64,000 nt of DNA from Abditibacterium sp. (GTDB lineage Bacteria > Armatimonadota > Abditibacteriia > Abditibacteriales > Abditibacteriaceae): positions 2,272,001 to 2,336,000 of the forward strand of contig OZ251992.1 in NCBI GenBank assembly GCA_965246885.1, given 5' to 3'. The notes beneath the pieces are model-generated. The model was not told the origin of the DNA and made no database searches. It was given only the letters and a program-made list of their open reading frames with translations. Of this stretch, positions 17,981 to 59,220 are shown in pieces (within the stretch, counting starts at the first letter, position 1; the number at the start of each line of letters is the position of its first letter). The position numbers were made by a program, and so were the translations under genes.

Positions 17981-18208
17981 GCCACCGCTAATTTGCTCAT
18001 TTACGCCGCCAACTTCCTCTTTTATGACAAAAACTTGGTCGCGTATGACAAAATATCCCTCTGTTACGCCGCCAACTTCGTCGGTTACGCTGTCTACTTC
18101 CTCATTTATGACAAAACGTTCCTCGTTTATGACAAATACTTCCTCCGTTACGCCGTCAACTTCCTAATTTATCCCGCCAACTTCCTGATTTACGACAACT
18201 TCGTTCCA
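17981..18208 (+). repeat. Degenerate 21-nt tandem array, family A copy 1 (about 11 units)
   Basis: Units such as tacgccgccaacttcctcttt / tatgacaaaacgttcctcgtt at exact 21-nt spacing from 18002 to 18191. Confidence 0.92.
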
Positions 18209-18410
18209 TTTTTTCGTCGTAGCCGCGTCGATAGACGCCCCGTCGAAGGCCCCGAAAAACGCGAATTGGATGATGTAGGCAATGGCGCTAAAGGCGGGGC
18301 GACGGCGCGCTTCCCCACCGCCGCCAAGATTTCTCCAAAGCCACTGTTTAAAAGCGCAAACAAATGGGCATACTGAGAGCGCGCCCAGAAGAAGCGGCGC
18401 CATCCCACTG

Positions 18411-20151
18411 ATGAAAAAGTTTCGCAACTCATTCGGCAGACAAAGTTCTGCCCACTCGTTGGGCCGTTGGGCCGTTGGTGTTGTGTGCTGGCGCGCTGAT
18501 GCTGTCGTCTCAGGCGCACGCTGATTGGGCTTACACGGGCCCGACCTACGAAGGAACTTACAATGAATTTGTCGGAGCAAACTCGAGTACTAACAACACT
18601 CGTTCCTCCATCACCGCCGGATATGCAGGCCAAGACCCTGTTCCGTTAGGGGGCGGCCAAGGAACTGGCAATCCCGGCGATACAGTCGGTATTACAACTA
18701 ATGGCCAATGCACGGTTCACCTTCACTACAAGTGGAATGGCCCGGGCACTCCAACGCCGCTAATTGTGCGCGTCGAAGTCACCCCAGCCGCCTCCGCTCG
18801 CTCTCGCGTTAGCGTCACAGACCCTGACTTTCCTGCTACTGAGCATGTCAGCGTGTCAGTCACAGCAGGAGGAACCACGGCCAGCGATCCGAGTGGCACG
18901 CGCGTTGCGTCCTACAAACCCGGTGTCTTGATGACTCGCGCTACAACCAACCTCAAGGCATTAGTCACGCTTTCTTCCGGTGGCCCCGGCTCACCTATCG
19001 ACGTGGACTTACCAATTGGGTATAGTGCCAGCGCCACTCTTGATGGAGGCCGCTTCAAGGCTGTGCCCAACAACCCCAAGGGGCAACCCGTTCTTGGTGA
19101 TGTGGGAGCGGGCTGGATGACGGGGCAGGTCGTGCGAGATAACCGCGCCGTCCAACTCACGCGCAACGTGGGCAACGATTCACATGGCATTCCTTTGGAA
19201 TACATCACTTATTTTGGAGGTGATACGATAACATATGGGGATACGACCTACTCCTATCATTCGCGCTTGACAGGGCTTGAGCCAGCCCCTGATGATGTTT
19301 GGAATCAGCAAACTATCTACGCTACCATAAACGGCGACTGGAGTAAAACTCTCGGACTATACAATGTCACTCGACGGTGGGTTATCCCAACCAATTTTCT
19401 GACCAACGTAACAAGCGAGACTTTGAACAGCTTGAGCGGCCAAACCCGCATGAGTTCGGGCATGGAGAAATTCGCTACAAATTGGGTTGGCGCTCCTGCT
19501 AACGACGAAGATTCAGTGATCAAGTTCTTCGTTCGAGACAACGTGGACGGCGCCCAAAGTGCCCCACGCTATGTCCTACGACTTCATGATCCTGTCGATG
19601 GAGTATCAACGTCTGTAACAGGACTGAACGTGACATGTGGATTTTTGGATGTCAACGGACAGCCTGTGGTCGTTGATCATGCCAACTCCTTAGGCAACCC
19701 GAATCTCAATGGGACTGTTGGCAAAAGTTCTGGATGGTCAATCTCAGGCAGTATTGGAGAGATTGAGGGGTTTAAAAAGCCGTTGGGATTGGACGTTGGC
19801 TATAGCTACTCTACAGACACCGGAACCGAGAAGGCCATCACGTTGGACAAGGTGGCGCAACCCGTTGATCCCAACATGGAGCGTCAAGTGATGATCACCT
19901 ACAAATACAACCGTCATCACTCGTTTTTTGACCGGTGGAATGAGAAAGGCAAAGTGAGGCGGTATGCCTATGCGGGTACACCAACCACCGCCCCGCCAAC
20001 GATGGAAGTTCAGCACGAGGGCTTCAGCGACGAGTATAAGACAAGCTCGCTTTCTTTTGGGATGCAATATGATCCTACACAAGTGGGCACTGCTCCGGCT
20101 TCAACGGTCACACCGCCTCTGCCCCCTGCGGTCTCCACATTCAAATCATGA
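18411..20151 (+). CDS. Large secreted beta-rich hypothetical protein (cassette 1); apparent frameshift in the signal-peptide region
   Basis: Open frame 18475-20151 starts with h-region plus AHA cleavage site; basic n-region MKKFRN..LGRWA starts at ATG 18411 in another frame; lower GC. Confidence 0.7.
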
Positions 20152-20996
20152 AAAAGTTCTTCATTGTCGGTTTGTGGATGCTGCTGAGCGTGAGCCAGAA
20201 GGCCGTATACGCTCAGATAGGCGCCGCTAAATGGCCCTTTCGCACCCGCGCTCAAGTCGAACGGGCCACCAAAGCCAATTTGCAGAATCTGCGTGCTTCT
20301 TACGACATCATCATGTCCGCGCGGCGTGTGGGCATGAGCCAGAGCGTTCTCAAGGTGTATGAGCAAGCGGCGGCAGGTGGCCCCTTCCAAACCCCGGATA
20401 AAGTCGCTGCCTTATACGCCTTTGCGTTTTGGGTAGACAGTTCCGCTATTCGCTGGAATTGGAAGGCAGACCGCGTCGCTGGAATCTGCCGAACCACTGG
20501 GGCAGATGCTGCGCGCATCACTCTCTATCAGCAAAGGGCGTTCGCTGCCCTGCCGAATTCGCCGGAAGTGTTGCTCTTTAATGCACTCGCTCAAGACCGG
20601 GCGGGAACCGACAACTTGAAGAACGCGCGCCGTCGGTTGCAACTCCTTGATCAAGCGATCAAGCTTGCCCCAAGATGGGGAGAACTCCACTTTTGGCGTA
20701 GCGAGGCGCTACAAAGCTGCGTTTATGAGTTGTCTGTGCCTAAAGGTCGCCCTTTATACCCGGCTTACGCACGAAAGGCTCTGATTGCTCTCGATAGGGC
20801 CATGCAGTTAGACCCGACCCTCCGACGCGAGGGGTTGGTCAATAAAATAGGCATATATCAGATGATGGGCAAACCCCGCGAGGCTTTAGCAGCGTTAGAC
20901 GCTTATGGGCGTGTCCATCCAGAATGGTTGTCATTGAAGGGAGTTTTTGAAAGACGACAACGCCTCTTGGGTCAAATCAAGAGCCAGGGAGGCTGA
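20148..20996 (+). CDS. Secreted TPR-like helical protein, coupled to the upstream gene
   Basis: ATGA overlap; signal peptide ending VYA; LDQAIKLAP and LDRAMQLDP TPR-like motifs. Confidence 0.75.
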   Translation: MKKFFIVGLWMLLSVSQKAVYAQIGAAKWPFRTRAQVERATKANLQNLRASYDIIMSARRVGMSQSVLKVYEQAAAGGPFQTPDKVAALYAFAFWVDSSAIRWNWKADRVAGICRTTGADAARITLYQQRAFAALPNSPEVLLFNALAQDRAGTDNLKNARRRLQLLDQAIKLAPRWGELHFWRSEALQSCVYELSVPKGRPLYPAYARKALIALDRAMQLDPTLRREGLVNKIGIYQMMGKPREALAALDAYGRVHPEWLSLKGVFERRQRLLGQIKSQGG

Positions 20997-35250: not shown

Positions 35251-35397
35251 CATGATTACCTCCCCGCACGCCATGAATTCCTCCCCGCACGCCATGAATT
35301 CCTCCCCGCGTGGCGTAAATTCCTCCCCGCGTGGCGCGAGGGACGTCCGCCACTTAATAGCGGACGTCCGTCATCCCATGATTTCCGTCCGCGAACT
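35251..35397 (+). repeat. 21-nt tandem array (family B), decaying into the carboxypeptidase 3' end
   Basis: catgattacctccccgcacgc / catgaattcctccccgcacgc / catgaattcctccccgcgtgg / cgtaaattcctccccgcgtgg, then three degenerate in-phase units. Confidence 0.88.
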
Positions 35398-36911: not shown

Positions 36912-37139
36912 GACGCCGCCAACTTCCTGATTTCCGCCGCCAACTTCGTCCGTTACGCCGTCAACTTCCTCGTTTATGACAAAACATTGGTCGCGTATGA
37001 CAAAATGTTCCTCGGTTACGCCGTCAACTTCCTCATTTATGACAAAACGTTCCTCGTTTATGACAAATACTTCCTCCGTTACGCCGCCAACTTCCTAATT
37101 TACGCCGTCAACTTCCTGATTTACGACAACTTCGTTCCA
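36912..37139 (+). repeat. Degenerate 21-nt tandem array, family A copy 2 (about 11 units)
   Basis: Same two unit types as 17981-18208; last five units nearly identical; both copies end tacgacaacttcgttcca. Confidence 0.92.
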
Positions 37140-37226
37140 GTTTATTTTGATTTTTTCTTGGCGCCTGTCCAAACGTTCTGTCATTGCGAGTGGATAGAGG
37201 AAAAGTTGCGAACGCACCAAAACGCC

Positions 37227-37359
37227 GCGCGTTGTCATTCCGAGGGGAGCCTTGGCGATCATTGGCGACCAGAGGAATCTATTGGCAGTCGCCCATTTGT
37301 TACCGAACGAAAGGCGGAACAAGATTCCTCTGGTCGCCAAGGCTCCCCTTGGAATGACA
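37227..37359. repeat. REP-like palindrome (GTCATTCCGAGG..GGAATCT family)
   Basis: tgtcattccgaggggagcc..agaggaatct pairs with agattcctct..ggaatgaca; first 24 nt identical to 46141-46164. Confidence 0.85.
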
Positions 37360-42615: not shown

Positions 42616-42639
42616 AAGCGGGAAGACGGAATCTACACC

Positions 42640-42939
42640 ATGAAAGACGCAGCCGTTTCACATCTGGTAAAAATCCTTGAAGACAAATCTATTTCAATAG
42701 CAGACAGGGACGACGCAGCGATAGATTTGGGAGCCTTCGACGACGATGCCGCGTTAGCTGCACTTGTCGCGGTGGGTCAAGATGCGGATGAAGATGAAAT
42801 GATTCTCTCTTCATGCGGCACTGCAATCTCTGACATTTGGCAGCGTCGAGGCGAATATAGCCTTGAAGTTCTCGATTCCCTCAATCCTGCCGCTCGGATT
42901 GAAGCTTTAGTGATGACTGGCACTCTTCGGCAATGTTGA
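42640..42939 (+). CDS. Putative cognate immunity protein (acidic, HEAT-like)
   Basis: 99 aa directly downstream of the Rhs C-terminal toxin domain (CT); RDDAAIDL motif; lower GC. Confidence 0.75.
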   Translation: MKDAAVSHLVKILEDKSISIADRDDAAIDLGAFDDDAALAALVAVGQDADEDEMILSSCGTAISDIWQRRGEYSLEVLDSLNPAARIEALVMTGTLRQC

Positions 42940-44231: not shown

Positions 44232-44237
44232 CGAAAA

Positions 44238-44609
44238 ATGTGGTATTCAGCTCACGCAGTAATGCTCATTCGACTGACAGATTGTGCTCAGCATGAATTT
44301 CCTGTATGGGAAAATATATTTCTCATAGAAGCCTCTGATTCAGACGAGGCCACAGTAAAAGCTCAAGAACGTGCGTTAGAAGATGAAGTCGAGGGTGGTG
44401 GTCTAAGTTGGGAAGGACACAAAGCCAAGTGTATATTCTTAGGACTGCGAAAGTTAATGCAGTGCTTTAGCGATGAGCGACAGCCAGGGGATGGCACTGA
44501 GCTTACACATAATCAACTCCTCTTTTCTACTCAGAGTTCTTTGGATGAATTTGTTCTTGGACGTGAGTGTCAAGTCACGTTTCAGGATGAGAATCCTGAT
44601 GATGACTAA
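44238..44609 (+). CDS. Putative immunity protein of the orphan toxin (DUF4288-like)
   Basis: MWYSA...WENIFLIEASDSDEA..KA...F-GLRKL pattern; follows the orphan CT; low GC. Confidence 0.7.
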   Translation: MWYSAHAVMLIRLTDCAQHEFPVWENIFLIEASDSDEATVKAQERALEDEVEGGGLSWEGHKAKCIFLGLRKLMQCFSDERQPGDGTELTHNQLLFSTQSSLDEFVLGRECQVTFQDENPDDD

Positions 44610-44631
44610 AAGCGTGGTTTGTGGCCTCAGC

Positions 44632-45037
44632 ATGACTCAGAACGGTGTCACCACCAACGTCGCTTACAGCTATGACGGCGAGGGCAACCGCGCGACCCAA
44701 ACCGTCGGCAACACCGCCAACAACGACAACTCCGTCACCAGTTACGCCTACGACAGCCAGCAACGCCTCACGCTTGTCAGCCAGAGCGTCAACGGCGCGG
44801 CGGCGGCGACGGTGATGAAGTGTGGCTACCGGAGCGACGGGCTACGCGCGTGGAAGGAGAACGCTCAGGGCGTGCGCACCTACTTCTTGTATGACGGCTC
44901 CAACCTCATCGGCGAGTTCGACCAAAACGGCAACGCGAAAGCGATTCAGACGTGGGGTGCCGAGGGGTTGGCCTCGCGCCAAACCACCCCCGGCACCGCG
45001 TCGGGCAACCGCTTCTACTCGTGGGATCCGCGCGGGC
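44632..45037 (+). pseudogene. Truncated Rhs core fragment lacking the DPxG end and toxin
   Basis: YSYDGEGNRA...FYSWDPRG homologous to the Rhs core, then similarity stops abruptly. Confidence 0.85.
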
Positions 45038-45081
45038 ATCGCCCGAAGGCTCCACCGTCACGCCGTTTGTTCTGTGACTAT

Positions 45082-45109
45082 AGATCCTTCGCTGGCTCAG
45101 GATGACGAA
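45082..45109. repeat. Half REP-like element
   Basis: agatccttcgctggctcaggatgacgaa; ctcaggatgacgaa also occurs at 37381-37394. Confidence 0.6.
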
Positions 45110-45179: not shown

Positions 45180-46106
45180 ATGTCAAACTTTGATGACGCT
45201 TTAGGCGTGAACGGCCACTTGAATGGCCACGCGAACGGCAATGGAACGGCAATGCTCGAACGGCCCCTGAATGGTGGCGGCGAGGCGGGCGTTCTTTCGA
45301 TGGGCAATGGGGCGCTGCTTCCTATAAGCGCGATGAATGGGGCGTATGCGCGGGCTGTTGACCCGGTTCCGCCTGTGCCGCCGATACCTCCCGCTCCGGC
45401 TAAGCCCGCGCGCAACCCGTTCAACAAGCAGTTGCAGCGCGAGTTGGCGGTCACGACGCAAGTGTGTTTGGCGGCGCTCAAGCCCGAATACGCGGGGGCT
45501 TTAGCGGGTTGGGGCATCACGGACAACAAGGTGCACGACCTGTTGAACGCCGTTAATGCGGCTCATGGCGTGAGTGCGGAAGCGCAAACTTCGACCAACG
45601 CGCGCGTTCATGCCACACGCGAAGAGCGGAAGGCGCGGGCCATCTTGCTCGGTTCGTTTCGCACCATCCAAAGCGCGGCGCGCATGGTGTTCGGCGTCTC
45701 GAAACCCGCCCACTTGCGCGATTATGGCGTCGGCGTTCTCCTGCCCACGCGCGCGTCGGTCGTGCAGGTGTATGAAGGCATCCTCAAGCAGTTGCAAACC
45801 GACACGTTGCCCGGCATCATCCCGGAGTTCATCACGCAAATGACGGTGCGCTACAACGACTGGAAGGCTGTTATCGCCAATCAAGGTCACTCGCAATCCG
45901 GCGCCACGACCCAGCGCGCCCACCGCAACGCGACCATAGACGACCTCGTGAAGCGCCGCCGCGAAATCCAAAGTGCCGCCAACGGCGTGTGGCCGCCCTC
46001 GCCCTCCAATCACGGCACGCGCCGCGAGTTCGCGCTCTCGCCCACCCGCCACTTCGCCACGCCCACGCCGAAAACGAAAAAGCGCGCCCCGAAGCCGATG
46101 ATTTAG
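45180..46106 (+). CDS. Hypothetical protein: NG-rich disordered N-terminus, Pro linker, long helical body, basic tail
   Basis: Purine-rich RBS-like stretch before ATG 45180; GC-rich open frame; stop lies in the downstream palindrome. Confidence 0.7.
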   Translation: MSNFDDALGVNGHLNGHANGNGTAMLERPLNGGGEAGVLSMGNGALLPISAMNGAYARAVDPVPPVPPIPPAPAKPARNPFNKQLQRELAVTTQVCLAALKPEYAGALAGWGITDNKVHDLLNAVNAAHGVSAEAQTSTNARVHATREERKARAILLGSFRTIQSAARMVFGVSKPAHLRDYGVGVLLPTRASVVQVYEGILKQLQTDTLPGIIPEFITQMTVRYNDWKAVIANQGHSQSGATTQRAHRNATIDDLVKRRREIQSAANGVWPPSPSNHGTRREFALSPTRHFATPTPKTKKRAPKPMI

Positions 46107-46306: not shown

Positions 46307-46407
46307 GCCAAGAGGCGACGAATGAAGGTTTCAGTTTCATGGCGTCGGGTTTGCGCGCACACTGAAGCGGTGCGCTTTTCCCCTACAGTGCGCGACTCCT
46401 TTATTTT

Positions 46408-49400
46408 ATGCTTCAGCAAAGTTCGATTCTGGCGTTTTTCGGCGACGCGCAGGGTGCGCGCGCCGCGTTTGAGAGCGTATCGCGCGCCGGTTTTCGGCAA
46501 GTCGTTCTGGTTTCCAAGGTGCTGGAAACTTCCGGCGATTCCAAAAACACAGTTGCTTCTTTCAAAGTCTCGCGGCCCCCGTCGGTCGCTCCGGTGCTTG
46601 CCGGAGTGGGCGCGGCGGTTGGTTTGGGCGCCGCGCAACTTGCGCCGGTGCCTCGCGCGCTTAAACCGGCGCTGACGGGGGCACTCGCGGTGATTGGCGG
46701 GGGCGTGGGATTCGTCGCGGGGAGTGCGTGGAGCGGCGGATTGCCTGAATCACTCGTCGAGGAGAACCGCGCGTTCCTTGCGGCGGGCGAGTCGCTGGTC
46801 ATTGTGCGCGCCAACCCCGCCGATTTGCGCGCGGCGAGGGAGCTGCTGCGCGGCGAGGGAGAAGGCGGGCCAGTGATATTCCTCGAAAGGGGCGATGCGC
46901 ACCGCTTCAACACGAGCCGCGCGCCCTTGCGCCGCGACGTGTTGGGCACAGATGCGCTGCGGGAGTTGGCGCAAACGCTGGGCGACAAGCACAAGACCGC
47001 CGCACCGCCCTCGTCGCTATCGGCGAACGCCTTTTTATTGACGCGGCTCAAGCAGAACGGGCGCATCATCGCCCGCGTCGCGCAGGGGTTGGGCGAAGCG
47101 ACGCGCTTGGGCCAGCCCGTGTCGCTTTCGACGGAGTGGCTGCTGGATAACAACTACATCGTCCGCGCGCAGATAAAGGATGTCGAGCGCAACCTGACGC
47201 CCAAGTTCTACGGGGAGTTGCCGGTCATTGGGGAGGGGCAATACAAGGGCGTGCCGCGCTTGTATGTGTTGGCGTCGGAACTCATCGCCGCGTCGGATTC
47301 GCGCCTCGACCGCGAGCATCTGCTCGATTTCGTCCATGCCTACCAATCGAGAACTCCGCTTTCAACGGGCGAACTGTGGGCGTTGCCGCTCATGCTGCGC
47401 TTGGCGCTGGTCGAGAACCTGCGCCGCCTGACGGCCCAAGCCGACGTGCGCCAGCGCGAGCGCGAGCGCGCCGACTTTTGGTCGAACCGCCTGCTTTCCG
47501 CCGCTTACCGCGAACCCGACCAACTGCTGCCGCTCCTCGCGCAACTGACGAAAGAGCAGACCGCGTTGGCGCCGCACTTCGCCGACCGTTTGGTGTCGCA
47601 CTTGTTCGATGAAGAAGCCGCGCTGGGGCCGGTGCGCGCGTGGTTGGAGCGCAAGTTGGACGCGCCGTTGTCGGAGATTACTTCGCGCGAACAGCGCCGC
47701 CAAGCCGCCGATTCGATCTCGGTGGGCAACGTCATCACGACGCTGCGCTTCCTCAATAACCTCGACTGGCGCGAGTGCTTCGAGCAACTCTCCTTGGTGG
47801 ACGCGATTTTGGGCCAAGACCCGGCGGGCGTGTATCGCTCGATGGACTTCGCCACCCGCGACCGCTATCGCGGCCAAGTCGAGAAGATCGCCCGCCGCGC
47901 CAAAACCGACGAACTACGCGTAGCGACGCTCGCCATCGAACGCGCAGCGTCGGCCAGCATGGAGCGGATGCGCCGCGCCGCGAGTTCGCACGGCGAGCGC
48001 GAACACGACGCCCTGATTTACCAACCGCCGGGGCACGTCGGGTTCTATCTGATAGACGAAGGCCGCGAAGCGTTCACCCGCGAACTGGGCTACTCCAAGA
48101 CCCCCGCCTCGCGCGCGCGGCGCTGGGTTCGGAATTATCCGGGCGTGTGGTATTTTGGCGGCATCGCCGTCGGGACTGTCGCGGCCATGACCATCTTGGC
48201 GCGCGCGGCGCGCGTGTTGGGGGCGGGCTTGCCGTTACCGCTCCGGCTTTTGTCCATCTTGCCGTCGTCGGAAGTGGCGGTGCAACTAGTCAACTACGCC
48301 GCGACGCGCGTTTTGCCGCCGCGTCCGCTCCCGAAGATGGAGTTCCGGCAGGGCGTGCCCGCGAAATGGAAAACGGCGGTCGTGATTCCGATGCTGCTCG
48401 GCTCCGTGCAAGACGCCGCCGATGCGTGCCGCCAAATCGAACTGCACTATCTGAGCGACCCCGACGCGCAGTTTCAGTTCGCGTTACTTGCCGATTATGT
48501 GGACGCGCAAACGCCGCAAACGCCCGACGATGAGCCGAGACTTCGCCGCGCCGTCGAGGGCATCGAGTACCTCAACGCGCACTACGGGCCGCAGTTTCAC
48601 TTGTTCATCCGCGACCGCAAATGGAGCGAAACCGAGGAACGCTGGATGGGCTGGGAGCGCAAACGGGGCAAGTTGGAAGAGTTCAACCGCGCGCTTTTGG
48701 GCAAAGGCGGGCGCTGCTCGGACGAACTGCACGAAGTGACGGGCGACCCCGCTGGGTTGCGCGATACCCGCTTTGTCGTGACGCTCGATGCCGACACGCA
48801 GATGCCTTTTGGCGCCGCGCGCCGCTTGGTCGAAACGCTCGCGCATCCGCTCAATCGCCCCGTTGTGAACCTCAAAGAAAGCGGCGTCGAGCGCGGCTAC
48901 GGCATCATTCAGCCGCGCGTGGACACCATGCTCCCCAGCGCGATGGCGACGCGCTTTTCCCGCTTGTTCTCCGACGCGAGCGGCAGCGACCCGTACACGC
49001 ACGTCGTTTCGGATGTTTACCAAGACGCTTTTGGCGAGGGCAGTTATCACGGCAAGGGCATCTACGACTTGGAAGTTTTTGAGCGCGTGTTGGGCGCGCG
49101 CTTCCCCGACGCGACGCTACTTTCGCACGACCTCATCGAAGGCGCGCACGTCCGCGCGGGCGTGGCGAGCGACATCGTTTTGCTCGACCGCTTCCCGCCG
49201 AACTACTTGGCGAGCGCCAAGCGCGACCATCGTTGGATACGCGGCGACTGGCAGATCGCGGATTGGGTTGGCAGTCAAATCCCGGCGCGCGATGGGCGCG
49301 GAGCCAACCCGCTTTCCCTTCTCAATCGCTGGAAAATCGCCGACAACCTGCGCCGCTCGCTCCTCGCGCCCGCGTCGGTTGCACTCTTGTTTGGCGGTTG

Positions 49401-52400
49401 GGTCGCGGGCGGAAGCGCGGCGTGGGCGGCGACGGCGGGTGTGGTCGGGTTACTGTTGTGGCCAACGGCGACGAACATTTTCACGCGCCTGACGACGCGG
49501 CCCGAATCGCTCATTCGCGCGCGCCACGAAATCCGGCGCGGCTTGGTGCGCGCGGGCGTCGAAGCGTCGTTCTTGCTGCATCGCTCCGGGCTGTGCTTGG
49601 ACGCGATGTCGCGCGCGCTGTTTCGCGCCAAGGTGTCGCGCAAGTTGCTGCTCGAATGGCAAACCGCCGCTTCGACGTATGGCGGCGCGCGGACGCAGCA
49701 AAGCGCGTTCATCCTCAAAATGGCGGGCGGCTCGGCTTTGGCGGGCGTAGTAGCGACGTTTCTGGCGCTTCAAGGCGGAAGCGCCCTCTTGCCCGCGTCG
49801 CCGTTTCTGCTCGCGTGGGCGATTTCACCGATGGTCGCGCTGTGGCTCGCCGGTGGGAAAAAGACGCTCCAACTGCGCGAAGCGTCGCCCGCCGACGAGA
49901 AGTATCTGCGCCCCATCGCGCGCGAAACGTGGCGCTACTTCGATGACTTCGTCGGGCCGCAAACCAACTGGCTGCCGCCCGACAACTACCAAGAAGCCCT
50001 CAACGTCGAAATCGCGCAACGCACCTCGCCCACCAACATCGGTCTGTGGATGCTGGCGTGCGTCGCGGCGCACGACTTCGGCTGGCTGACGCTGGACGAA
50101 GTGGCCAATCGCAACCTCGAAACGCTCAAAACGCTGGACGAATTGGAGAAATACGAGGGGCACCTGCTCAACTGGTATCACTCCGGCACGACCGAGGCGC
50201 TTCGCCCGCGCTACGTTTCGACGGTGGATTCCGGCAACTTGCTCGGCAGCCTGTGGACGCTCGCGCGCTCGATGAAAGAACTCTACCGCGCGCCTTTGTT
50301 CGACGCCAAAGCCCTCGCGGGGTTGGCGGATGTCGCCGATTTGTTGGAGCGCGCCCTCGGCGAAGAGCGGAAATCATTCGATTCGGAGTTGGCGGAGGTG
50401 CGCCGGGTGTTGGCGCACGCCCCGCAAACGCCCAGCGAGGTCGTTGCATCGTTGCGCGCCCTCGAAAAACCAGTCAGCGCCCTCTCTCGCGCGCTCGCGC
50501 TACGCCCGACGAAGCGGCAATCGAGCTTGCGGGCGCGTTCCAACCTCGAAGCGGCGACCTCAGACCCGCGCTTTTCGATTGCTCCACCCGCCTATTGGGG
50601 CGCGCAGTTGGACACGCAACTGGAACTGTGGGCGCAAACCGCCGCGCGCTACGGGCGCTGGTTAGAGTTGCTCGCGCGCCCCGCCGACGAGTTCCTGCTG
50701 TCGCTGGGCGGAGATGCGGCGCAAGTGCGGCGCGACATTTTGGCGCTGTCGCCGTCGTTGGTGCAACTGGCGGGCGGACAGGTCGCGGGATTGGAAGCGT
50801 TCCTTTCGCGCGGCGAAGCGGAGGGCATCCCCGCCGAAGTTGCAAAGTGGACACGCGATGTGCGCGAAGAGTGGAACCGCGCGCGTTGGCTGGCGGGCGA
50901 GATGCTGGCCGACTGCGAAGCCGTCGTTGACCGCGCGCGCGGATTGGCCGATGGCATGGGCATGGGCTTCCTCTATGACCCGGCGCGCAAGCTGTTCTCG
51001 ATTGGCTTCAACGTGGACGACCGCCGTTTGGACGGCTCGCACTACGACCTACTCGCGTCGGAGTGCCGCCTCGCCTCGTTCTGCAGCGTCGCGCGCGGCG
51101 ACGTGCCGCCCGACCATTGGATTGCGTTAGGACGCCGCTTCGGGCAGACACCGGCGGGCGCGGCGCTAATGAGTTGGAGCGGCACGATGTTCGAGTATCT
51201 GATGCCGATGCTGTTCCAGCGCGCCTTCGACAACTCGCTCCTCCAGAACGCCGTGCAAGTCGCGGTCGGCGCGCAAATCAGCTACGGGCAAGCGCGCGGC
51301 GTGCCTTGGGGCATCTCGGAAGCGGCGTTCTCGGCCTTAGATGCCAACAACATCTACCAATACAAAGCGTTCGGCTGCCCCGGATTGGGCCTCAAGCGCG
51401 GCTTGGAAGATGACTTAGTCGTGGCTCCGTATGCGACGCTGATGGCCCTCATGGTCGCGCCCGACGCGGCGCTTGCCAACCTGCGCAAGTTGGAAGCGAT
51501 GGGCTTACGCGGCGATTACGGCTTCTACGAGTCGGTGGACTTCACGCGCGAGCGGCTGGAAGAGGACTCGCTTGTCTCGGCGACCGAAGGTGAGACGGCG
51601 CGGGCGGGCGGACGCGGCGCGGGGCTGGGCAAGCGCGGCGCGATTGTGCGTTGCTTCATGGTTCACCATCAGGGTATGGCGCTGCTGGCGATGCAAAACG
51701 TCTTGTGCGGCTGGCCGGTGCAGCGCCGCTTCCATTCCGATGCTTTTGTCGAGGCCGCCGAGCCGCTTCTGTTCGAGAAAATCCCCGACGCCGCGCCCGT
51801 CATCGAGTCGGCTGTCACGCTTGAAGCGCGCCCGACGCGCGTGGACTTCGGCGGGCCGACGACCGAGCGCACCATTGCTCCCGACACGCCCGCGCCGCGC
51901 GCGCACTTGTTGGGCAACGAGGGGATGAACACGATGATTACGGCGGCGGGCGGCGGCACCACGCGCTGGCGCGACACCGAACTTGTGCGCTGGCGCAGTG
52001 ACACCACGCGCGACAACTGGGGGTCGTTCGTGTATCTGCGAGACTTGGAAACGGGCGTGAGTTGGTCGGCGACGCACCAACCGATGCAGCGCGTCGCGCA
52101 AAGGAGCGCGGTGCGCTTTCGCGCCGAAAAAGCCGAGTTCGAGCGGCGCGGCGTCAACATCGAAACGCGCTTGGAGGTGTGCGTCTCGCCCGAAGACGAC
52201 GCGGAAGTGCGGCGCCTCACGCTCGTCAATCATTCGAGCCGCGCCCGCGAAGTGGAAATCACCACCTTCGCCGAACTGTCGCTCGCGCCACACGCCGCCG
52301 ACCGCGCGCACCCGGCGTTCAACAAGCTGTTCATCCAAACCGCCCTCGTTCCCGAACGCGAGGCGCTTTTGGCGTGGCGCCGTCCGCGAAAAACGGGCGA

Positions 52401-55400
52401 CAAAGTTGTATGGGCCGCGCACCAGATGGCCTCGAACGTCGCCGCGACCAAGGTCGAATTCGAGACTGACCGCGCCCGCTTTTTGGGGCGCGGCAGGGGC
52501 AACGACAACCCGGTCGCGCTTGAAGGCGAACTGAGCGGCACGGCGGGCGCGGTTCTCGACCCCTGCTTTTCGCTGCGGCGCCGCGTTGTGTTGCAACCGG
52601 GACAGCGCGTGTTGGTCGCGTTCGTGCTGGGCGCCGCCGAGGACGAAGACGGCGTGCGCCGCTTGGTGGACAAATACGCGGACTTTGGCGCCTGCGAGCG
52701 CGCCTTCGACCTCGCTTGGACGCACTCGCAATTGGAACTGCGCCACTTGCAAATCACCTCCGACGACGCGGCGGCGTTTCAGCAATTAGCCGGGTATCTG
52801 CTCTTCCCGCACGCTGCCCTGCGCGCGCCCGCCAAGCGCGTGCGCGAGAATCACAAGGGGCAAAACGGCTTGTGGGCGTATGGCATTTCGGGCGATCTGC
52901 CCATCGTCGTGGTCGCCGTTGACAATGCGCGCGACCTGCCCGCCGTGCGACAAGCGATTATGGCGCACACCTTTTGGCGCGTGCGCGGCCTCCAGTGCGA
53001 CCTCGTCATTCTCAACGAGCAAGCGGGCGGCTACGCGCAGGACTTGACGCAAACGCTGCAAAAGCTGGTTGCGTCCTCCACGCCCTACACCGGAAGCGAA
53101 AAGCCGGGAGGCGTGTTCTTGCGCACCGTTGATACCGTGTCGCCGGAAGATTTGACGCTGCTTTATGCCGTCGCGCGCGTGGTGCTGGTGGCGGCGCGCG
53201 GCACGCTCGCGCAGCAGTTGGGCGCCATCAACGACGACGCCGAAACGTTGCCGCGCTTTGTCGCCTCAGCCAAAGAAGCGCCGGAAACCGCGCTTGCGCT
53301 CCCGTTTTTGGAACTCCCGTACTTCAACTCGCTGGGCGGCTTCACCCCCGACGGGCGGGAGTATGCCATCTACCTTGGCCCGAAAGCGCAAACGCCCGCG
53401 CCTTGGATCAACGTCTTTGCGCATCCGCACTTCGGCGCGGTCGTGTCGGAATCGGGTCAAGGCTTTTCGTGGTTTGGCAACTCCCAGTCGAACCGTCTCA
53501 CGCCTTGGAGCAACGACCCGGTATCGGATACGCCCGTCGAAGCGATTTATCTGCGCGACGAAGAAACCGGCGCGTATTGGACGGCGACGCCACTTCCCAT
53601 CCGTGAGACTGAAGCCTACCGCGCGCGGCACGGCCAAGGCTACTCGACGTTTGAACACTCGTCGCACGGCATCGAACAGGAACTCACGCAGTTCGTTCCG
53701 CTCGGCTTGAACGCCGCGTTTCCGATGGGCGAGCCACCCGTGAAAGTCTCGCGCCTCAAACTTCGCAACCGCTCGAATCGCAAGCGGCGTTTAACGCTCA
53801 CCTTCTACGCGGAGCTTGTATTGGGCACGACGCGCGAGGAGAATCAGATGCACGTCGTGTCGAGTTGGGACACCGAAGCCAAGGCGCTGCTCGCGCGCAA
53901 CGCTTACAATCTTGACTTCGCCGCTCGCGTGGTGTTCGCGGCGGCGTCGGTGGAGCCGCTCGCTCATTCCGGCGACCGCGCGGCGTTCTTGGGGCGCAAC
54001 GGCAACCCCGCCGCGCCCGCCGCCATGCGCCGCAAAACCTTGTCCGAAAAGACCGGCGCGGGCCTCGACCCGTGCGCGGCGTTGCAAGTCAGCGTTACGC
54101 TCGCGCCCGGAGAAGAACAAACGCTCTCCTTCTTGCTCGGCGAAGCGGAGAGCGTCGAGGAAGCGCGGGCGGTCGTGGCGATGCTCCGCGATTCTTCCTC
54201 GGTCGAGCGCGCTTTGATGGACACGAAGAACTTCTGGGACGACACGCTCGGCATTATCGAAGTTGAGACGCCCGACCAAGCCGTCAACTTCCTGCTCAAT
54301 CGCTGGCTGCCTTACCAAACGCTCGCCTGCCGCATCTGGGCGCGCTCGGCGCTTTATCAGTCCGGCGGCGCGTGGGGTTTCCGCGACCAGTTGCAAGATT
54401 CGCTCGCAATGGCGACGCTGCGCCCGTCCGTGACGCGCGAGCAGATTTTGCGCTCAGCGCGTCAGCAATTTGAGGAAGGCGACGTGCAACACTGGTGGCA
54501 CCCGCCCGGAAACGCGGGCGTGCGCACGCTCATCACCGACGACCTGCTGTTCCTGCCCTACGCCGTCGCGCACTACGTTCACACGACGGGCGACGCGAGC
54601 ATTTTGGATGAGCAAGTCCCGTTTCTGCAAGCCGATGTCTTAGGGCCAGAAGAACACGAGAAGTATTTCCAGCCGCAAATCTCGCCCGAATCGGCGACGA
54701 TTTTCGAGCATTGCCGCCGCGCCATCGAGAAAGGTTCGACGCACGGCGCGCACGGTTTGACGCTCATTGGCGGCGGCGACTGGAACGACGGACTCAACCG
54801 CGTCGGCATTGAAGGCAAGGGTGAATCTGTCTGGCTGACGTGGTTTATCGCCCGCGTCCTGCGCGATTTCGCGCCGGTTTGCGAACTGAAGGAGCAAGCC
54901 GAACTCGCGCAAACCTACCGCAAGCGCGCCGATGCTTATGTGCAATCCATCGAAAGCGGCGCGTGGGACGGCGAGTATTATCGGCGCGGCTACTTCGACG
55001 ACGGCACGCCGCTTGGCTCGCACGAATCGGAAGAAGCCAAAATTGACTCGCTCCCGCAAAGCTGGGCCTTGATTACTGGCGGCGGCGATCCCGCGCGCGC
55101 AAAGCAAGCAATGGCGTCGCTCGAAACGCACCTCATTAAGAAGGATGACAAGTTGGTGCTGCTCTTCACGCCCGCCTTCGACAAGACGACGCACGACCCC
55201 GGCTACATCAAAGGCTACTTGCCGGGGGTGCGCGAGAACGGCGGGCAATACACGCACGCCGCGTGCTGGGTCGCCTACGCCTACGCCAAGTCGGGTCAGG
55301 GCACCAAAGCCGTCGAAACGCTGCGCCTCTTGAACCCCGTCGAACACGCGCGCACGCCCGACGCGCTCAACCGCTACAAAGTCGAACCCTACGTCGTCGC

Positions 55401-55746
55401 GGCGGACGTGTATAACCTCGAAGGCCACGTCGGGCGCGGCGGCTGGACGTGGTATACGGGCAGTTGCGGCTGGATGTATCGCGCGTGGATCGAGGGCGTT
55501 TTAGGCTTCGACCGACGCGGCGACAAACTGCAAATCAACCCGTCGCTCCCGCCCGACTGGAAGACCTGCCGCCTCACCTACCGACACGGCCAAACCCCCT
55601 TCATCATCGAAATAGACAACCCGCAAGGCGTCGAATCCGGCGTCACGTCCATCGAAATGGACGGCGCGGATTTGGAAGGTTTGGAGATTCCGCTCGCGGA
55701 TGACGGCGCAACGCACCGGATTGTGGTGCGGATGGGGAAGGAGTAG
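46408..55746 (+). CDS. ndvB: Cyclic beta-1,2-glucan synthase (NdvB/ChvB/Cgs-like, GT84 plus GH94) with N-terminal extension
   Basis: EWLLDN, ELWA-P-MLR, MGWERKRGKL, TLDADT, SHDLIEG, RWIRGDWQ, TSPTNIG, SWSGTMFEYLMP, GFRDQLQD, GDWNDG, RENGGQYTH. Confidence 0.93.
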   Translation: MLQQSSILAFFGDAQGARAAFESVSRAGFRQVVLVSKVLETSGDSKNTVASFKVSRPPSVAPVLAGVGAAVGLGAAQLAPVPRALKPALTGALAVIGGGVGFVAGSAWSGGLPESLVEENRAFLAAGESLVIVRANPADLRAARELLRGEGEGGPVIFLERGDAHRFNTSRAPLRRDVLGTDALRELAQTLGDKHKTAAPPSSLSANAFLLTRLKQNGRIIARVAQGLGEATRLGQPVSLSTEWLLDNNYIVRAQIKDVERNLTPKFYGELPVIGEGQYKGVPRLYVLASELIAASDSRLDREHLLDFVHAYQSRTPLSTGELWALPLMLRLALVENLRRLTAQADVRQRERERADFWSNRLLSAAYREPDQLLPLLAQLTKEQTALAPHFADRLVSHLFDEEAALGPVRAWLERKLDAPLSEITSREQRRQAADSISVGNVITTLRFLNNLDWRECFEQLSLVDAILGQDPAGVYRSMDFATRDRYRGQVEKIARRAKTDELRVATLAIERAASASMERMRRAASSHGEREHDALIYQPPGHVGFYLIDEGREAFTRELGYSKTPASRARRWVRNYPGVWYFGGIAVGTVAAMTILARAARVLGAGLPLPLRLLSILPSSEVAVQLVNYAATRVLPPRPLPKMEFRQGVPAKWKTAVVIPMLLGSVQDAADACRQIELHYLSDPDAQFQFALLADYVDAQTPQTPDDEPRLRRAVEGIEYLNAHYGPQFHLFIRDRKWSETEERWMGWERKRGKLEEFNRALLGKGGRCSDELHEVTGDPAGLRDTRFVVTLDADTQMPFGAARRLVETLAHPLNRPVVNLKESGVERGYGIIQPRVDTMLPSAMATRFSRLFSDASGSDPYTHVVSDVYQDAFGEGSYHGKGIYDLEVFERVLGARFPDATLLSHDLIEGAHVRAGVASDIVLLDRFPPNYLASAKRDHRWIRGDWQIADWVGSQIPARDGRGANPLSLLNRWKIADNLRRSLLAPASVALLFGGWVAGGSAAWAATAGVVGLLLWPTATNIFTRLTTRPESLIRARHEIRRGLVRAGVEASFLLHRSGLCLDAMSRALFRAKVSRKLLLEWQTAASTYGGARTQQSAFILKMAGGSALAGVVATFLALQGGSALLPASPFLLAWAISPMVALWLAGGKKTLQLREASPADEKYLRPIARETWRYFDDFVGPQTNWLPPDNYQEALNVEIAQRTSPTNIGLWMLACVAAHDFGWLTLDEVANRNLETLKTLDELEKYEGHLLNWYHSGTTEALRPRYVSTVDSGNLLGSLWTLARSMKELYRAPLFDAKALAGLADVADLLERALGEERKSFDSELAEVRRVLAHAPQTPSEVVASLRALEKPVSALSRALALRPTKRQSSLRARSNLEAATSDPRFSIAPPAYWGAQLDTQLELWAQTAARYGRWLELLARPADEFLLSLGGDAAQVRRDILALSPSLVQLAGGQVAGLEAFLSRGEAEGIPAEVAKWTRDVREEWNRARWLAGEMLADCEAVVDRARGLADGMGMGFLYDPARKLFSIGFNVDDRRLDGSHYDLLASECRLASFCSVARGDVPPDHWIALGRRFGQTPAGAALMSWSGTMFEYLMPMLFQRAFDNSLLQNAVQVAVGAQISYGQARGVPWGISEAAFSALDANNIYQYKAFGCPGLGLKRGLEDDLVVAPYATLMALMVAPDAALANLRKLEAMGLRGDYGFYESVDFTRERLEEDSLVSATEGETARAGGRGAGLGKRGAIVRCFMVHHQGMALLAMQNVLCGWPVQRRFHSDAFVEAAEPLLFEKIPDAAPVIESAVTLEARPTRVDFGGPTTERTIAPDTPAPRAHLLGNEGMNTMITAAGGGTTRWRDTELVRWRSDTTRDNWGSFVYLRDLETGVSWSATHQPMQRVAQRSAVRFRAEKAEFERRGVNIETRLEVCVSPEDDAEVRRLTLVNHSSRAREVEITTFAELSLAPHAADRAHPAFNKLFIQTALVPEREALLAWRRPRKTGDKVVWAAHQMASNVAATKVEFETDRARFLGRGRGNDNPVALEGELSGTAGAVLDPCFSLRRRVVLQPGQRVLVAFVLGAAEDEDGVRRLVDKYADFGACERAFDLAWTHSQLELRHLQITSDDAAAFQQLAGYLLFPHAALRAPAKRVRENHKGQNGLWAYGISGDLPIVVVAVDNARDLPAVRQAIMAHTFWRVRGLQCDLVILNEQAGGYAQDLTQTLQKLVASSTPYTGSEKPGGVFLRTVDTVSPEDLTLLYAVARVVLVAARGTLAQQLGAINDDAETLPRFVASAKEAPETALALPFLELPYFNSLGGFTPDGREYAIYLGPKAQTPAPWINVFAHPHFGAVVSESGQGFSWFGNSQSNRLTPWSNDPVSDTPVEAIYLRDEETGAYWTATPLPIRETEAYRARHGQGYSTFEHSSHGIEQELTQFVPLGLNAAFPMGEPPVKVSRLKLRNRSNRKRRLTLTFYAELVLGTTREENQMHVVSSWDTEAKALLARNAYNLDFAARVVFAAASVEPLAHSGDRAAFLGRNGNPAAPAAMRRKTLSEKTGAGLDPCAALQVSVTLAPGEEQTLSFLLGEAESVEEARAVVAMLRDSSSVERALMDTKNFWDDTLGIIEVETPDQAVNFLLNRWLPYQTLACRIWARSALYQSGGAWGFRDQLQDSLAMATLRPSVTREQILRSARQQFEEGDVQHWWHPPGNAGVRTLITDDLLFLPYAVAHYVHTTGDASILDEQVPFLQADVLGPEEHEKYFQPQISPESATIFEHCRRAIEKGSTHGAHGLTLIGGGDWNDGLNRVGIEGKGESVWLTWFIARVLRDFAPVCELKEQAELAQTYRKRADAYVQSIESGAWDGEYYRRGYFDDGTPLGSHESEEAKIDSLPQSWALITGGGDPARAKQAMASLETHLIKKDDKLVLLFTPAFDKTTHDPGYIKGYLPGVRENGGQYTHAACWVAYAYAKSGQGTKAVETLRLLNPVEHARTPDALNRYKVEPYVVAADVYNLEGHVGRGGWTWYTGSCGWMYRAWIEGVLGFDRRGDKLQINPSLPPDWKTCRLTYRHGQTPFIIEIDNPQGVESGVTSIEMDGADLEGLEIPLADDGATHRIVVRMGKE

Positions 55747-55874: not shown

Positions 55875-56714
55875 TCACGGCTTGTCTGGCCGAGGGTCTG
55901 GCTTCCACTCTCCTTTGCGAATCTTCTCCGCGTAGATATGATTGACGCGAATCAGACCAGCCATGTCTTTTCGATCCTCCGCCGCATCGGGCGTGTTAGG
56001 CCGTAGTTGCAGATATCTTTGTATCGCGGCGGTGTCCTTGTAAATAGCACTCAAGTCATCGCCAGAAGTCCATTGTCCTGAGTAGGCTTGGGACAAGACA
56101 CGATATGCGCGATAATCATTGGGATGCTCTTTGGCGAATCGCAGCGCATAAACCAAACCGCGTTTGCGCGAGGCGCGCGTTGAATGATCCCCTGCCAAAA
56201 TACGTGCGTAGAAAACTTTGACCGGATAATCGTCTGGTTTACGCTGTAGCAGCCGCTCGGCCAGTCCCAAGAAGCGAACTGACTTCTCCTCACGCACCTC
56301 GATAAGGAAGCGCAAGTGCATCGTTTCGTAGTTGGGCGGTAGACCCACTTTGTGCAAGCGTTTGAGCAGTGGATACGACAAAAACCGCTGCTCCAGAATA
56401 GTCGCCGTCTCCTTCTGCGCCTCGTTGCTGGCGTAGGCCCAACGGTAGAGCGCCACGCGGTCAAGCGGCTTTCTCTCATACGCTTGTTGCAGTTGCCGGG
56501 ACAACGCGGCCAAGGCGTTGGAGTTTTTGGCTGCTGCGACTTTAGCCTCCATCTCTTTGCGCGCTTTGGTGAAGGGCGCTTCGCTGGTATTCCACTTCTT
56601 CTTAGCCCAGTCGTGGTAGGAGGCTTTTAACTCGTCGGGGATGCCGGGAGCGATTTCTTGCCCGTGTGCTGTGCCGAGAGCGACAAGCAGGAAGAATAAA
56701 GATGTATGCTTCAT
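55875..56714 (-). CDS. Secreted TPR-like helical protein, coupled to the upstream gene
   Basis: ATGA overlap at 56711-56714; signal peptide ending AHG; LLQRKPDD, AKEHPND, YLQLRPN TPR-like turns. Confidence 0.72.
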   Translation of the reverse strand: MKHTSLFFLLVALGTAHGQEIAPGIPDELKASYHDWAKKKWNTSEAPFTKARKEMEAKVAAAKNSNALAALSRQLQQAYERKPLDRVALYRWAYASNEAQKETATILEQRFLSYPLLKRLHKVGLPPNYETMHLRFLIEVREEKSVRFLGLAERLLQRKPDDYPVKVFYARILAGDHSTRASRKRGLVYALRFAKEHPNDYRAYRVLSQAYSGQWTSGDDLSAIYKDTAAIQRYLQLRPNTPDAAEDRKDMAGLIRVNHIYAEKIRKGEWKPDPRPDKP

Positions 56715-58783
56715 TGTTTGTCCTTTCCGGGGGTTCGCAAATCTTCGTAAAGCCCGATAGCTGCCTCTTCGGTCGGTTGAGCTACTGCCTTTTTATCGAG
56801 AGCAACAAAACCCGAAGGGTTGAATTGGTCGCCTTTATATAAGGTGATCTCGTATTCATCGTAGAGGTAAAGGTGCTTGAGACGGCACTCCTCAAATAGC
56901 GAATCAGGCGGCACTAAAACCCCTACTGCTGGGTATTTTTGTTGAACCTTCTTGGCGATGTCGAACATACCGGAGATGTTCTGTGTAGCCGAGTTGACGC
57001 CTTGGTTTGGGTGCCAGTTATCATCCGCAAGTTTGGCCGCCGCCGCTAAAGTTTTGAACCACGGGGTCTTGACAAACTTGGCAGCAGTGTCCAGTGACTT
57101 AGCGCCAAATTGAGCAGCTGCGTCTACGTCTCCCAACAAAACCGACCGCTTATCGCACGTTGCAGGGGTGCCATCGGCTTTGATGTTCTGGCTGGCTCCC
57201 ACACTCATTGTGTCTGGATTGAAGTCGTAGAGGACATACGAGATTTTCTTGTCTCCGTAAGGCTCGTAGTTCTCGTAGTCCTCATGCCAGTTGACCGTGT
57301 AGGTGTTAACCAATGGAGGCACGGTAGGTAGAGGCGGCATCCTTGTGCCAGCGAGCTTCTCTCCGACTTCGACTTTGAAAGTGGATTTCTTGATCCTCAG
57401 TCCGTCATCTTTGCCCAGATATATCCCACTGACGTCCACCGTTTGAGGAAGCTGTCTGATGTTATCCCACCAACTGTTGCTCTCGTCATTCGCATTGACG
57501 CTGACATTGAGATCTACCTTGCTCTGATCTTTTTGAAGCTCGTCCGACGTTGCAAATTGTGGAGTTCCACCTTGCAAGCTCCATTTGTATTGGGGAGACA
57601 AAAAGCCTTCAGCATTGGCTGTATATCTCCCTCTGCCATAGCTGTCTGTCTTTGTGTAATCGAGTGGAGATAAAAGATCCCCAAGCGATGGTTGTGCGTC
57701 TCGATACAGTTGGAGATATGTGCTATGCACATCTATCGAGCCATCAGAATTCCGTTGGCATTGAATGGCGTAAGTGCCAGTCTTTTCATCAGCCCACAGC
57801 ACGGGGCGTCCGGCTCCTTTGTCCATTAACCGGTTGCCCGCCGCGTCCGTTTGGAAGCTACCATCAGGGTTCTTCAAGTAGCAGTAGTCCGGCAGAGGGT
57901 TCTGTGGGAAAGCTGGCCCCACCGCCGAGAACTTATAGTAGCTGGGCTCGATGTCGGAGGTAATCCACAGTTGGTGCGGGTCGATGTCGTAGTGAGGGAT
58001 GACGCACACCGAAGCGTATGTCTTGTCTCCCTGCAGACCCCCATCATAATCAGGGTCAGGATACCTGCCCATCGTGACGCGGCAAGTGGCGCTCACGGGC
58101 GGCATGGGATACGTCACATACAACGAACCGTCGGTGGCGGTGACGCCCTTGGATGTGGGCGTGGCCCCTTGGGTGGAAAGGGTCAAGTAGCTGATGGGGG
58201 TCGCGGCATAGCTGAAGAACTGCGTATACGGGGAGGGGCTGGTCAGCTTCTGCGCGTGAGTCGAGTCCGAGTAGCTCTTGCCGCCCGGGGCCGCCACGCG
58301 AGTGGTCAAGGTGACGCTTCCGGGCGTGCCAGTCAGTGCGGATCCGTTGTAGCCCTTTGGATCGCCCAAGTCCAGCCGGGCGCCCGTGCCTATGGCCTCT
58401 TGCCAGAACCAAACGCCCACAAACGGCGGAATCTTCTCGCCTTTGGCCGAGGGCGTCCAGCGCAGCACGAGGGTGTAGCTCCCGGCGGTGCTGGCCGTTT
58501 GCGTTTGGCCCATATCGAGCGGCCCGCTCCCCGAGCCGTGCGCGTCGGAACTGTCACTATCGCCTTCGGTCGAGTTCTGCCAGACATAGACATGACCCTG
58601 TGTCTCGCCTTGGCCCGCGCTACGAGCGCTTTGCCCGTTGTGATCCAGCGAGATGGCCCAGCCGCCCGCGTGGGCCAAGGGCGCGTTCATCAACAAACTA
58701 CCTGACGCGACAGACGCCGCAAGCGCCCAACGGCCCAACAACAAGGGCGAGCGCGGCGCGCTCTTGTGGTTGCGATTTTTCAT
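56711..58783 (-). CDS. Large secreted beta-rich hypothetical protein (cassette 2); start reassigned to 58783
   Basis: MKNRNHK..LGRWALAA..AHA signal peptide; 690-aa open frame; 3' half lower GC. Confidence 0.8.
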   Translation of the reverse strand: MKNRNHKSAPRSPLLLGRWALAASVASGSLLMNAPLAHAGGWAISLDHNGQSARSAGQGETQGHVYVWQNSTEGDSDSSDAHGSGSGPLDMGQTQTASTAGSYTLVLRWTPSAKGEKIPPFVGVWFWQEAIGTGARLDLGDPKGYNGSALTGTPGSVTLTTRVAAPGGKSYSDSTHAQKLTSPSPYTQFFSYAATPISYLTLSTQGATPTSKGVTATDGSLYVTYPMPPVSATCRVTMGRYPDPDYDGGLQGDKTYASVCVIPHYDIDPHQLWITSDIEPSYYKFSAVGPAFPQNPLPDYCYLKNPDGSFQTDAAGNRLMDKGAGRPVLWADEKTGTYAIQCQRNSDGSIDVHSTYLQLYRDAQPSLGDLLSPLDYTKTDSYGRGRYTANAEGFLSPQYKWSLQGGTPQFATSDELQKDQSKVDLNVSVNANDESNSWWDNIRQLPQTVDVSGIYLGKDDGLRIKKSTFKVEVGEKLAGTRMPPLPTVPPLVNTYTVNWHEDYENYEPYGDKKISYVLYDFNPDTMSVGASQNIKADGTPATCDKRSVLLGDVDAAAQFGAKSLDTAAKFVKTPWFKTLAAAAKLADDNWHPNQGVNSATQNISGMFDIAKKVQQKYPAVGVLVPPDSLFEECRLKHLYLYDEYEITLYKGDQFNPSGFVALDKKAVAQPTEEAAIGLYEDLRTPGKDKQ

Positions 58784-58858
58784 GGGATGCGCGCCGCGTT
58801 TTTCGGCGTCCCTTTGATCTACCAAATCAATGTTAATGAGGTTTTAAGTTGGCCCCTT

Positions 58859-59220
58859 ATTTTTCTCGTCAAATACCTCTTTTTCCTGCGCAAATATGGA
58901 AAGCGCCGCGCGAAATCCGTATTTCCGCGCTCTAAATCTATGTTTACCCGCGTCGAATCTGTATTTACCCCGAAGAAATACAGACTTGGCGCGGCAAAAT
59001 ACGGATTTCTTTCGGCCAAATCCCGATTCCGCTCAAGCAAATACATAAGGCGTGAGGGGATGGTTAGAGCGAAGCCTCACCCGACTGAGGGAGCGATTCA
59101 TCCAGTTCGGGCGAACGCTTCGCCCGCCCGTGTGGACGATCAATGGTGCCGTGCCGACGACTGATACAACCGTGTCGACGGCTCGCCCGGTCGGGTGAAT
59201 CGTTCGCCCATGTCGGCGGG
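58859..59220 (+). repeat. Highly degenerate 21-nt-period array (family C, two sub-blocks)
   Basis: Nine units 58859-59047 with (a/g)aat at unit positions 13-16, most starting ttt; then units such as cgatcaatggtgccgtgccga / cgactgatacaaccgtgtcga. Confidence 0.75.

Follow-up and report, generated by a model that had tools for sequence, protein, structure and literature searches.

Integrons are fixed platforms with polar, exchangeable accessory cassettes, and Tn7/Mu-type transposon ends and plasmid iterons are polar arrays of protein-binding sites of about 21 bp. Many of the hot spots at which defence and toxin genes are exchanged have no recombinase nearby. With regard to short dispersed repeats, the small dispersed repeats of Nostoc (SDR, Elhai et al.) are reportedly 21-27 nucleotides (nt) long. 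The part of the Geobacter bemidjiensis account that was compared describes intergenic multicopy direct repeats of 6 to 42 nt, which occur genome-wide in lineage-specific families, one of them inserted in genes without a frameshift (PMC2996986). REP and REPIN sequences, which go with RAYT transposases, are presented as abundant extragenic repeats in the portion of the source used here (PMC3733652). Here, we analyse a window of 64,000 nt from the genome of Abditibacterium sp. (G000:C1:2272001-2336000, where G000 is the genome under study and C1 its contig), in which arrays with a 21-nt period lie upstream of three loci coding for secreted-looking proteins. Some arrays of this kind are paired with the gene of an unnamed all-helical protein and have a fixed polarity. 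At empty sites this two-part module and its cargo are absent together, and the cargo differs between copies and between species. The array and the helical gene mark spots where, in this and other bacteria, cassettes for toxins, defence and surface proteins are swapped without an adjacent integrase, possibly by an undescribed route of gene exchange.

The periodicity of the three arrays, as described in the original prediction, is real. The identity of each array at lag 21 was set against 2000 shuffles, with lags 20 and 22 as neighbours. The arrays at 17981-18208, 36912-37139 and 58859-59050 gave identities of 0.61, 0.66 and 0.54, and a fourth one at 35251-35340 gave 0.86, values which no shuffle attained (0/2000 in each case). 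The shuffles of the three named arrays did not exceed 0.39, and lags 20 and 22 gave only 0.22-0.35, which is background. The distances to the proposed starts (18411, 37561 and 58783) also hold, with measured gaps of 203, 422 and 76 nt. The third array had been taken as a single element extending from 58859 to 59220. It does have the 21-nt period, but two arrays abut there: the AT-rich one noted above, which ends at about 59050, is followed by a weaker, GC-rich one (59080..59220, unstranded, identity 0.43). The arrays at 17981 and 36912 belong to one family, S3, with four copies in the genome: the first (17981..18210, forward strand) comprises about 11 mosaic units and starts 7 nt after the stop codon of a conserved gene of 47 amino acids (aa) at 17831-17974, and the second (36912..37142, forward strand) comprises 11 units. 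The AT-rich array at 58859..59050 (reverse strand) belongs to another family, S4, with two copies and a quasi-palindromic unit core present in both orientations. The array at 35251..35340 (unstranded), located between convergent genes, belongs to a third, GC-rich dispersed family of 11 copies. Regarding the lower GC content of the three loci, this is correct for the first and third cargo (0.54 and 0.555, respectively), whereas the RHS gene of the second is only mildly low (0.59 versus 0.625). The count of four arrays in 64 kb is likewise correct, but it is no sign of rarity, as the 233 arrays of the whole genome amount to a mean of 4.2 per 64 kb.

At the scale of the genome, period 21 is dominant: it is found in 278 of the 581 Tandem Repeats Finder arrays of G000, and 350 segments score at lag 21, whereas lags 20 and 22 yield only 6 and 3, respectively. 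Of the 233 robust arrays retained, 186 lie outside strong genes, the gene calls being those of a purpose-made hexamer model, and arrays are found in every intergenic orientation. No enrichment was observed in G000 before low-GC genes (12/101 versus 187/1182) or before signal-peptide-like genes (45/327 versus 154/956). Signal peptides were judged by eye and with a crude hydrophobicity rule rather than by a predictor, and this rule missed some genes of the window whose starts were miscalled; the GC tests are therefore the ones to rely on. As the arrays are abundant and unenriched, the proposed general tie between 21-nt arrays and secreted or low-GC genes does not hold for the class as a whole, and these counts rule out 21-nt arrays in general as markers of these genes. 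Six GC-rich array groups show no link to low-GC flanks (13/155 versus 14% of 635 array-free gaps); such flanks are also rare in one array pair (0/2) and in singletons (1/16), and they are found in 0/10 arrays of the family of the 35251 array. Approximately 230 strict 21-nt arrays of G000 fall into several unrelated families. The dominant family exhibits a 16-bp degenerate palindrome per unit, with randomly mixed halves, and 11 arrays bearing its motifs sit within genes. Perfect palindromes are not favoured (4 of 227 cores versus 8 expected), and the half-sites of the dominant family pair no better than random, which leaves no conserved stem-loop per unit. The window gave no Rfam match at gathering score. 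Neither the S3 array DNA nor the dominant motif was found in 26 genomes of the family, and samples of 140-220 kb from five relatives contained 0-2 lag-21 segments each, versus about 73 per Mb in G000. Within the relatives sampled, the array burst thus appears to be specific to the lineage of G000.

Four small AT-rich families, S1, S3, S4 and S5, behave as a border of swappable cargo, unlike the class as a whole. A low-GC block, defined by a GC content below 0.58 in the 2-kb flank, borders 5/5 arrays of S1, 4/4 of S3, 2/2 of S4 and 2/2 of S5, i.e., 13/13 long AT-rich arrays, versus the 14% of array-free gaps given above. Ten of these 13 island-linked arrays lie outside the window. When the class was defined blindly, on array length and GC content only, 11/21 arrays were located at islands versus 83/623 gaps (p 4e-5); among the remaining arrays, the figure was 11/160. 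In addition, the polarity is fixed, since all five S1 and all four S3 arrays point the same way toward the low-GC block. The cargo types include type III restriction-modification, PIN and HNH genes, a transposase and secreted-looking pairs. The cargo had been foreseen as secreted toxin or adhesin genes; secreted genes are indeed present, but not exclusively, as defence genes are found too. The related proposal of a landing site for swappable cassettes applies to these minority families, including the three arrays of the window, but not to the class at large.

The three-locus picture was correct for the arrays and missed a partner gene located beyond the RHS cassette. This gene (45180..46106, forward strand; its start may be 45102) encodes an all-helical protein of 308 aa and constitutes the downstream half of the module, its upstream counterpart being the array at 36912. 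A paralog with 82% identity (C1 1564574-1565491) closes a different cargo of another S3 array, and two S1 cargo blocks terminate in paralogs, 83% identical, of a 268-aa gene. The order array, cargo, gene is found four times in G000, with a different cargo each time. The 308-aa and 268-aa families are homologous by profile (hhalign 91.7%, E 7.9e-7); the 45180 sequence on its own gave no hit against the MNAGQ-type alignment, and significance was obtained only profile-to-profile. At the far end of the first cargo, of the third cargo and of six other blocks, neither a partner helical gene nor a remnant of it was found.

The family of the 45180 protein comprises 318 relatives at the 50%-cluster level (E 0.001) and has no Pfam or NCBIfam name. 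Its predicted structure is confident and all-helical, with two helices of about 56 residues, and Foldseek returned no match at E 0.001; the best Z in the fold searches was 9.5, among generic helical bundles. No relatives were found in viral contigs with the one pattern used, and none of the close clade were found in metagenomes. DUF6261 (PF19775) was considered and rejected, since its hidden Markov model had no match in G000 at E 0.1, nor among 126 relatives; a DUF6261 cluster that scores 0.87 by model features is a lead only. A similar Asn-Gly-rich low-complexity tail is present in three different array-paired protein families of G000 (window 45180-45300, C1 2122574, 2656322 and 2851027), at the N end in one family and at the C end in two.

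The pairing of array and gene is also observed in other genomes. In the 45180 family, a 21- or 42-nt array lies within 520 nt upstream of the gene in 12/24 metagenome loci and downstream in 0/18; the 24 loci are those that were non-redundant and had enough flank among 79 fetched, the others being redundant or too short. The FN3-type family, found beside an S5 array, has an array upstream in 5/5 loci, with a period of 20-21 or 41-42. For two further families beside G000 arrays, the array is upstream in 15/21 loci and downstream in 0/21. The 268-aa family has an array in 9/29 loci, and its single conserved ortholog has none. No sequence homology was detected between the 45180 family and the FN3-type family. 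The products of C1 525622 and 2849921 are helical and FN3-like by eye; as the comparison with the FN3-type alignment was not significant, their families were counted solely as array-paired. In other bacteria, the array abuts the gene. Arrays of different loci are unrelated in sequence but keep a period of 20-21 or 41-42, which points to helix geometry.

Some loci of G000 with genes of array-paired families have a particular organization. At G000:C1:520114-529394, what is by eye a type I restriction operon holds an array, a 231-aa array-paired gene and an AAA-ATPase cassette between its apparent hsdS and hsdR. At G000:C1:2848896-2851027, a gene remnant and a hairpin element separate the array from a 368-aa array-paired gene. 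A paralog of the latter with 55% identity, at 1664364 (1656956-1665503), has its nearest array 7.2 kb upstream, with three genes between.

Occupied and empty sites were compared in relatives, as the original prediction had proposed, and the site of the second cargo exhibits three states. Its conserved left flank is an M32 carboxypeptidase gene (35354..36895, reverse strand) and its conserved right flank a GH94/glycoamylase gene (46408..55746, forward strand, 3112 aa). In L021-L023, three relatives, about 160 nt separate these two genes, and array, cargo and helical gene are all missing; the site is occupied in G000 and swapped in G003. The G003 site, which is split over two contigs, shows a 21-nt array, a different low-GC secreted-looking pair, a helical gene 61% identical to the 45180 gene, and GH94. 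The first cargo is absent at its site in G002, G005, G010 and G012. The site of the third cargo holds other genes in three relatives, and no homolog of this cargo was found at its site in the relatives examined. With regard to the junctions, the 3' flank of the array, with its hairpin, is repeated in direct orientation on either side of one S1 cargo, a PIN pair. The cassette adjacent to the S1 array at C1 2750797 opens with 169 nt that are 95% identical to the start of the first cargo. Its other end is made up of pieces that match core genes flanking the first and third cargo: 195 nt correspond to the start of the gene at 21220 and 49 nt to the end of GH94. These junctions fit a process in which cassettes would move between array-marked sites and drag flanking DNA along, as would happen in homology-anchored, one-sided illegitimate joining.

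Turnover is also observed next to the helical gene in other bacteria, where the DNA immediately after it is hypervariable. The GC content is lower downstream than upstream of the gene in 21/32 loci (p 0.005), and, among gene pairs that are at least 95% alike, the upstream DNA is common in 6/7 and the downstream DNA in 9/30. L294 and L296 are identical until 246 nt past the stop codon, diverge for 2.5-2.9 kb and then rejoin, and, in the clade of these two, the sequences part just after a terminator-like hairpin. Among the named neighbours are restriction, Septu, AAA, PIN, Sel1 and large Ig-type proteins, together with housekeeping proteins and many unnamed ones. PADLOC matched 12 of 109 proteins encoded downstream, two of them on generic domains. 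In L272-L350, many unannotated low-GC genes lie directly downstream of the helical gene; these are candidates for undescribed defence or secreted systems.

Based on these results, we propose a two-part mobile module which acts as an integrase-free capture point and whose non-coding half is formed by the long AT-rich arrays, a proposal to which we assign slightly less than an even chance. We infer that the module itself drives the capture of cargo. It would consist of a lattice in which sites recur at every second DNA turn (20-21 or 41-42 bp), together with the gene of an all-helical protein, which in some families would end in an FN3-like tail, and would thereby form a portable, polar capture point without integrase. 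Homology in the array or in the gene would anchor the incoming DNA, and joining at or just past the short hairpin would allow new cassettes to enter beside the module. The entry point would be located after the gene in most bacteria and after the array in this lineage, so that the cargo would push array and gene apart; the copies at 17981 and 58859 hold array and cargo, with no partner gene. More tentatively, the helical protein may bind to the lattice or assemble on it, and the other arrays of G000, roughly 170 in number, may in part be orphans which derive from such modules and have spread by themselves. In a much broader and, in our view, unlikely version, the capture platform would be widespread: the helical protein would assemble on the two-turn lattice and promote one-sided insertion or exchange of defence, toxin and surface-protein cassettes, each array family would have its own protein, and the cargo would lie inside the bracket in this lineage.

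Several observations weigh against this proposal. Only 21/66 low-GC islands have an array and 45/66 have none, two paralogs of the secreted genes of the window have no array, and a partner gene is detectable for only 5 of the 13 island-linked arrays. The G003 array at the M32-GH94 site shares two short motifs and its polarity with S3, and the profile similarity is not significant. Cargo is found inside the bracket only in G000 and G003, with no clear case in 20 longer loci elsewhere. The downstream drop in GC content concerns 13/14 metagenome loci and only 8/18 loci of this phylum, and the large clade varies upstream too (8 types in 13 loci, and 12 types in 20 downstream), the loci and pairs compared being related and not independent. 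Finally, the 45180 protein has no family, clear fold match or evident catalytic motif.

A first alternative, somewhat unlikely in our judgement, is that array and helical gene form an accessory or selfish unit which lands in ordinary core-gene hot spots, where the cargo turns over by general homologous recombination. It stands because most islands are devoid of arrays and one occupied site has none: at the site of the first cargo, G003 carries another pair without a detectable array. The site of the third cargo likewise holds its other genes without arrays in relatives, and REP-like elements and terminators, which attract insertions, are found at the same junctions. Nevertheless, mere company would not be expected to give a fixed array-to-cargo polarity and a one-sided variability, nor an array and a gene of matching families bracketing each of four different cargoes, and the 155 GC-rich arrays of G000 show no association with islands (13/155).

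According to a second, clearly improbable alternative, the array is a phased binding site which drives or silences downstream transcription, and cargo gathers there for the control of its expression. The array is always upstream of the gene, its period follows helical turns (20-21 and 41-42), and the cargo of the window is co-directional with the array, as would be expected of such a regulatory platform. In contrast, the type III restriction-modification cargo of one S1 array is transcribed toward its array, a hairpin resembling a terminator follows the S1 arrays, and no helix-turn-helix or other DNA-binding family was detected in the 45180 protein. The arrays had finally been suggested to be translated leader peptides made of 7-residue repeats, and, although all four S3 copies leave one frame open, this is hardly credible and the arrays are to all appearances non-coding, given that their conservation shows no codon-phase bias, that in two island-linked arrays every frame of the island strand is interrupted by stops, that stop-free frames over 133 arrays match column shuffles, and that periods of 20 and 41 are found in relatives.

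With the capture-point proposal, the pairing of array and gene gains a concrete functional hypothesis, and the module, with its DNA lattice, small unnamed protein, three site states and narrow switch point, becomes a testable candidate for what underlies hot spots. The array-paired genes could also be used as a marker for mining, as the adjoining DNA is rich in unannotated low-GC genes.

The cargo blocks of the window differ in composition. The first (18300..20996, forward strand) encodes a secreted-looking protein and a 282-aa partner. The ATG at 18411 is out of frame with the 558-aa open reading frame (ORF) at 18475-20151; the break occurs at an 8-nt tandem repeat in the signal-peptide region (18457-18478), with 2.8 copies, out of frame. 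A paralog near C1 2750520 has more copies of this repeat, in frame, and phase variation is possible. The second cargo (37561..45105, forward strand) starts with an RHS protein of 1684 aa at 37561 and further comprises a small immunity-like ORF (42640-42939), an orphan RHS (42933-44231), a DUF4288 ORF (44238-44609) and an RHS fragment, which closes the block at 45105. In contig run X2, the depth drops over the RHS tip and the orphan region (41900-44500), and one contig jumps over 41166-42941, a pattern that strain variation of the RHS tip would produce; no joint skipping the cargo was found across 34500-47500 in three contig runs. A long inverted-repeat (REP-like) element (37226..37374, unstranded), from a separate dispersed family found at about a dozen places in the genome, lies just inside the bracket, and a second copy (~46103-46306) lies just outside. 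The third cargo (55875..58783, reverse strand) encodes a 690-aa secreted-looking protein and a 279-aa partner.

The literature searched, with subscription journals and preprint supplements outside its coverage, contained no account of the pairing of array and gene or of the cargo bracket. From what was found at its copies, the module does not appear to be an integron, and it is neither a REP/RAYT system nor a CRISPR array. It resembles an integron in its polar, exchangeable cargo and in the duplicated short site that flanks one cargo. However, G000 has three tyrosine recombinase (PF00589) genes, none beside an island-linked array, and the module has a helical protein and a 21-bp lattice instead. 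An all-against-all BLAST of 17 regions revealed no shared cassette end at the sequence level, except for one duplicated S1 flank and one shared scar. The variable parts of the arrays recur among units and arrays, unlike the unique spacers of CRISPR. Compared with Tn7/Mu-type ends, no second inverted end was seen on the islands, and, compared with plasmid iterons, no initiator gene is adjacent. The Mu-type domain PF09299 gave no match, the control being likewise blank and other DDE families not being searched.

With regard to REP/RAYT, the likeness, as far as the portion of the source compared describes these repeats, lies in the extragenic abundance and in the degenerate palindromic core of the dominant G000 family (PMC3733652). 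In contrast, the Y1 genes of G000 are flanked by their own long, unrelated hairpins, and the nearest arrays are about 1 kb or more away. Five Y1 (RAYT-like) transposases are present (G000:C1:10567, 567387, 1335203, 1381523 and 1930539), two of them in or beside array-linked blocks. RAYT as a mobiliser of the arrays is unsupported, since the Y1 genes carry hairpin families of their own. The single reverse transcriptase of G000 has no adjacent array.

The Geobacter bemidjiensis repeats resemble the dispersed GC-rich arrays of G000, and the text compared names no partner gene, cargo or mechanism for them (PMC2996986). Likewise, the Nostoc SDR, among them SDR5 (PMC5861425), are mobile repeats of very small size which genes reportedly accept in frame, comparable to the 11 arrays with dominant motifs inside genes of G000; they differ from the units of G000, which form strict-period tandem lattices of several unrelated families, some of them tied to a protein gene. 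Finally, the second cargo is itself an RHS polymorphic-toxin locus with orphan modules. The difference from plain RHS loci is that, here, the entire RHS locus is the exchangeable cargo of the bracket.

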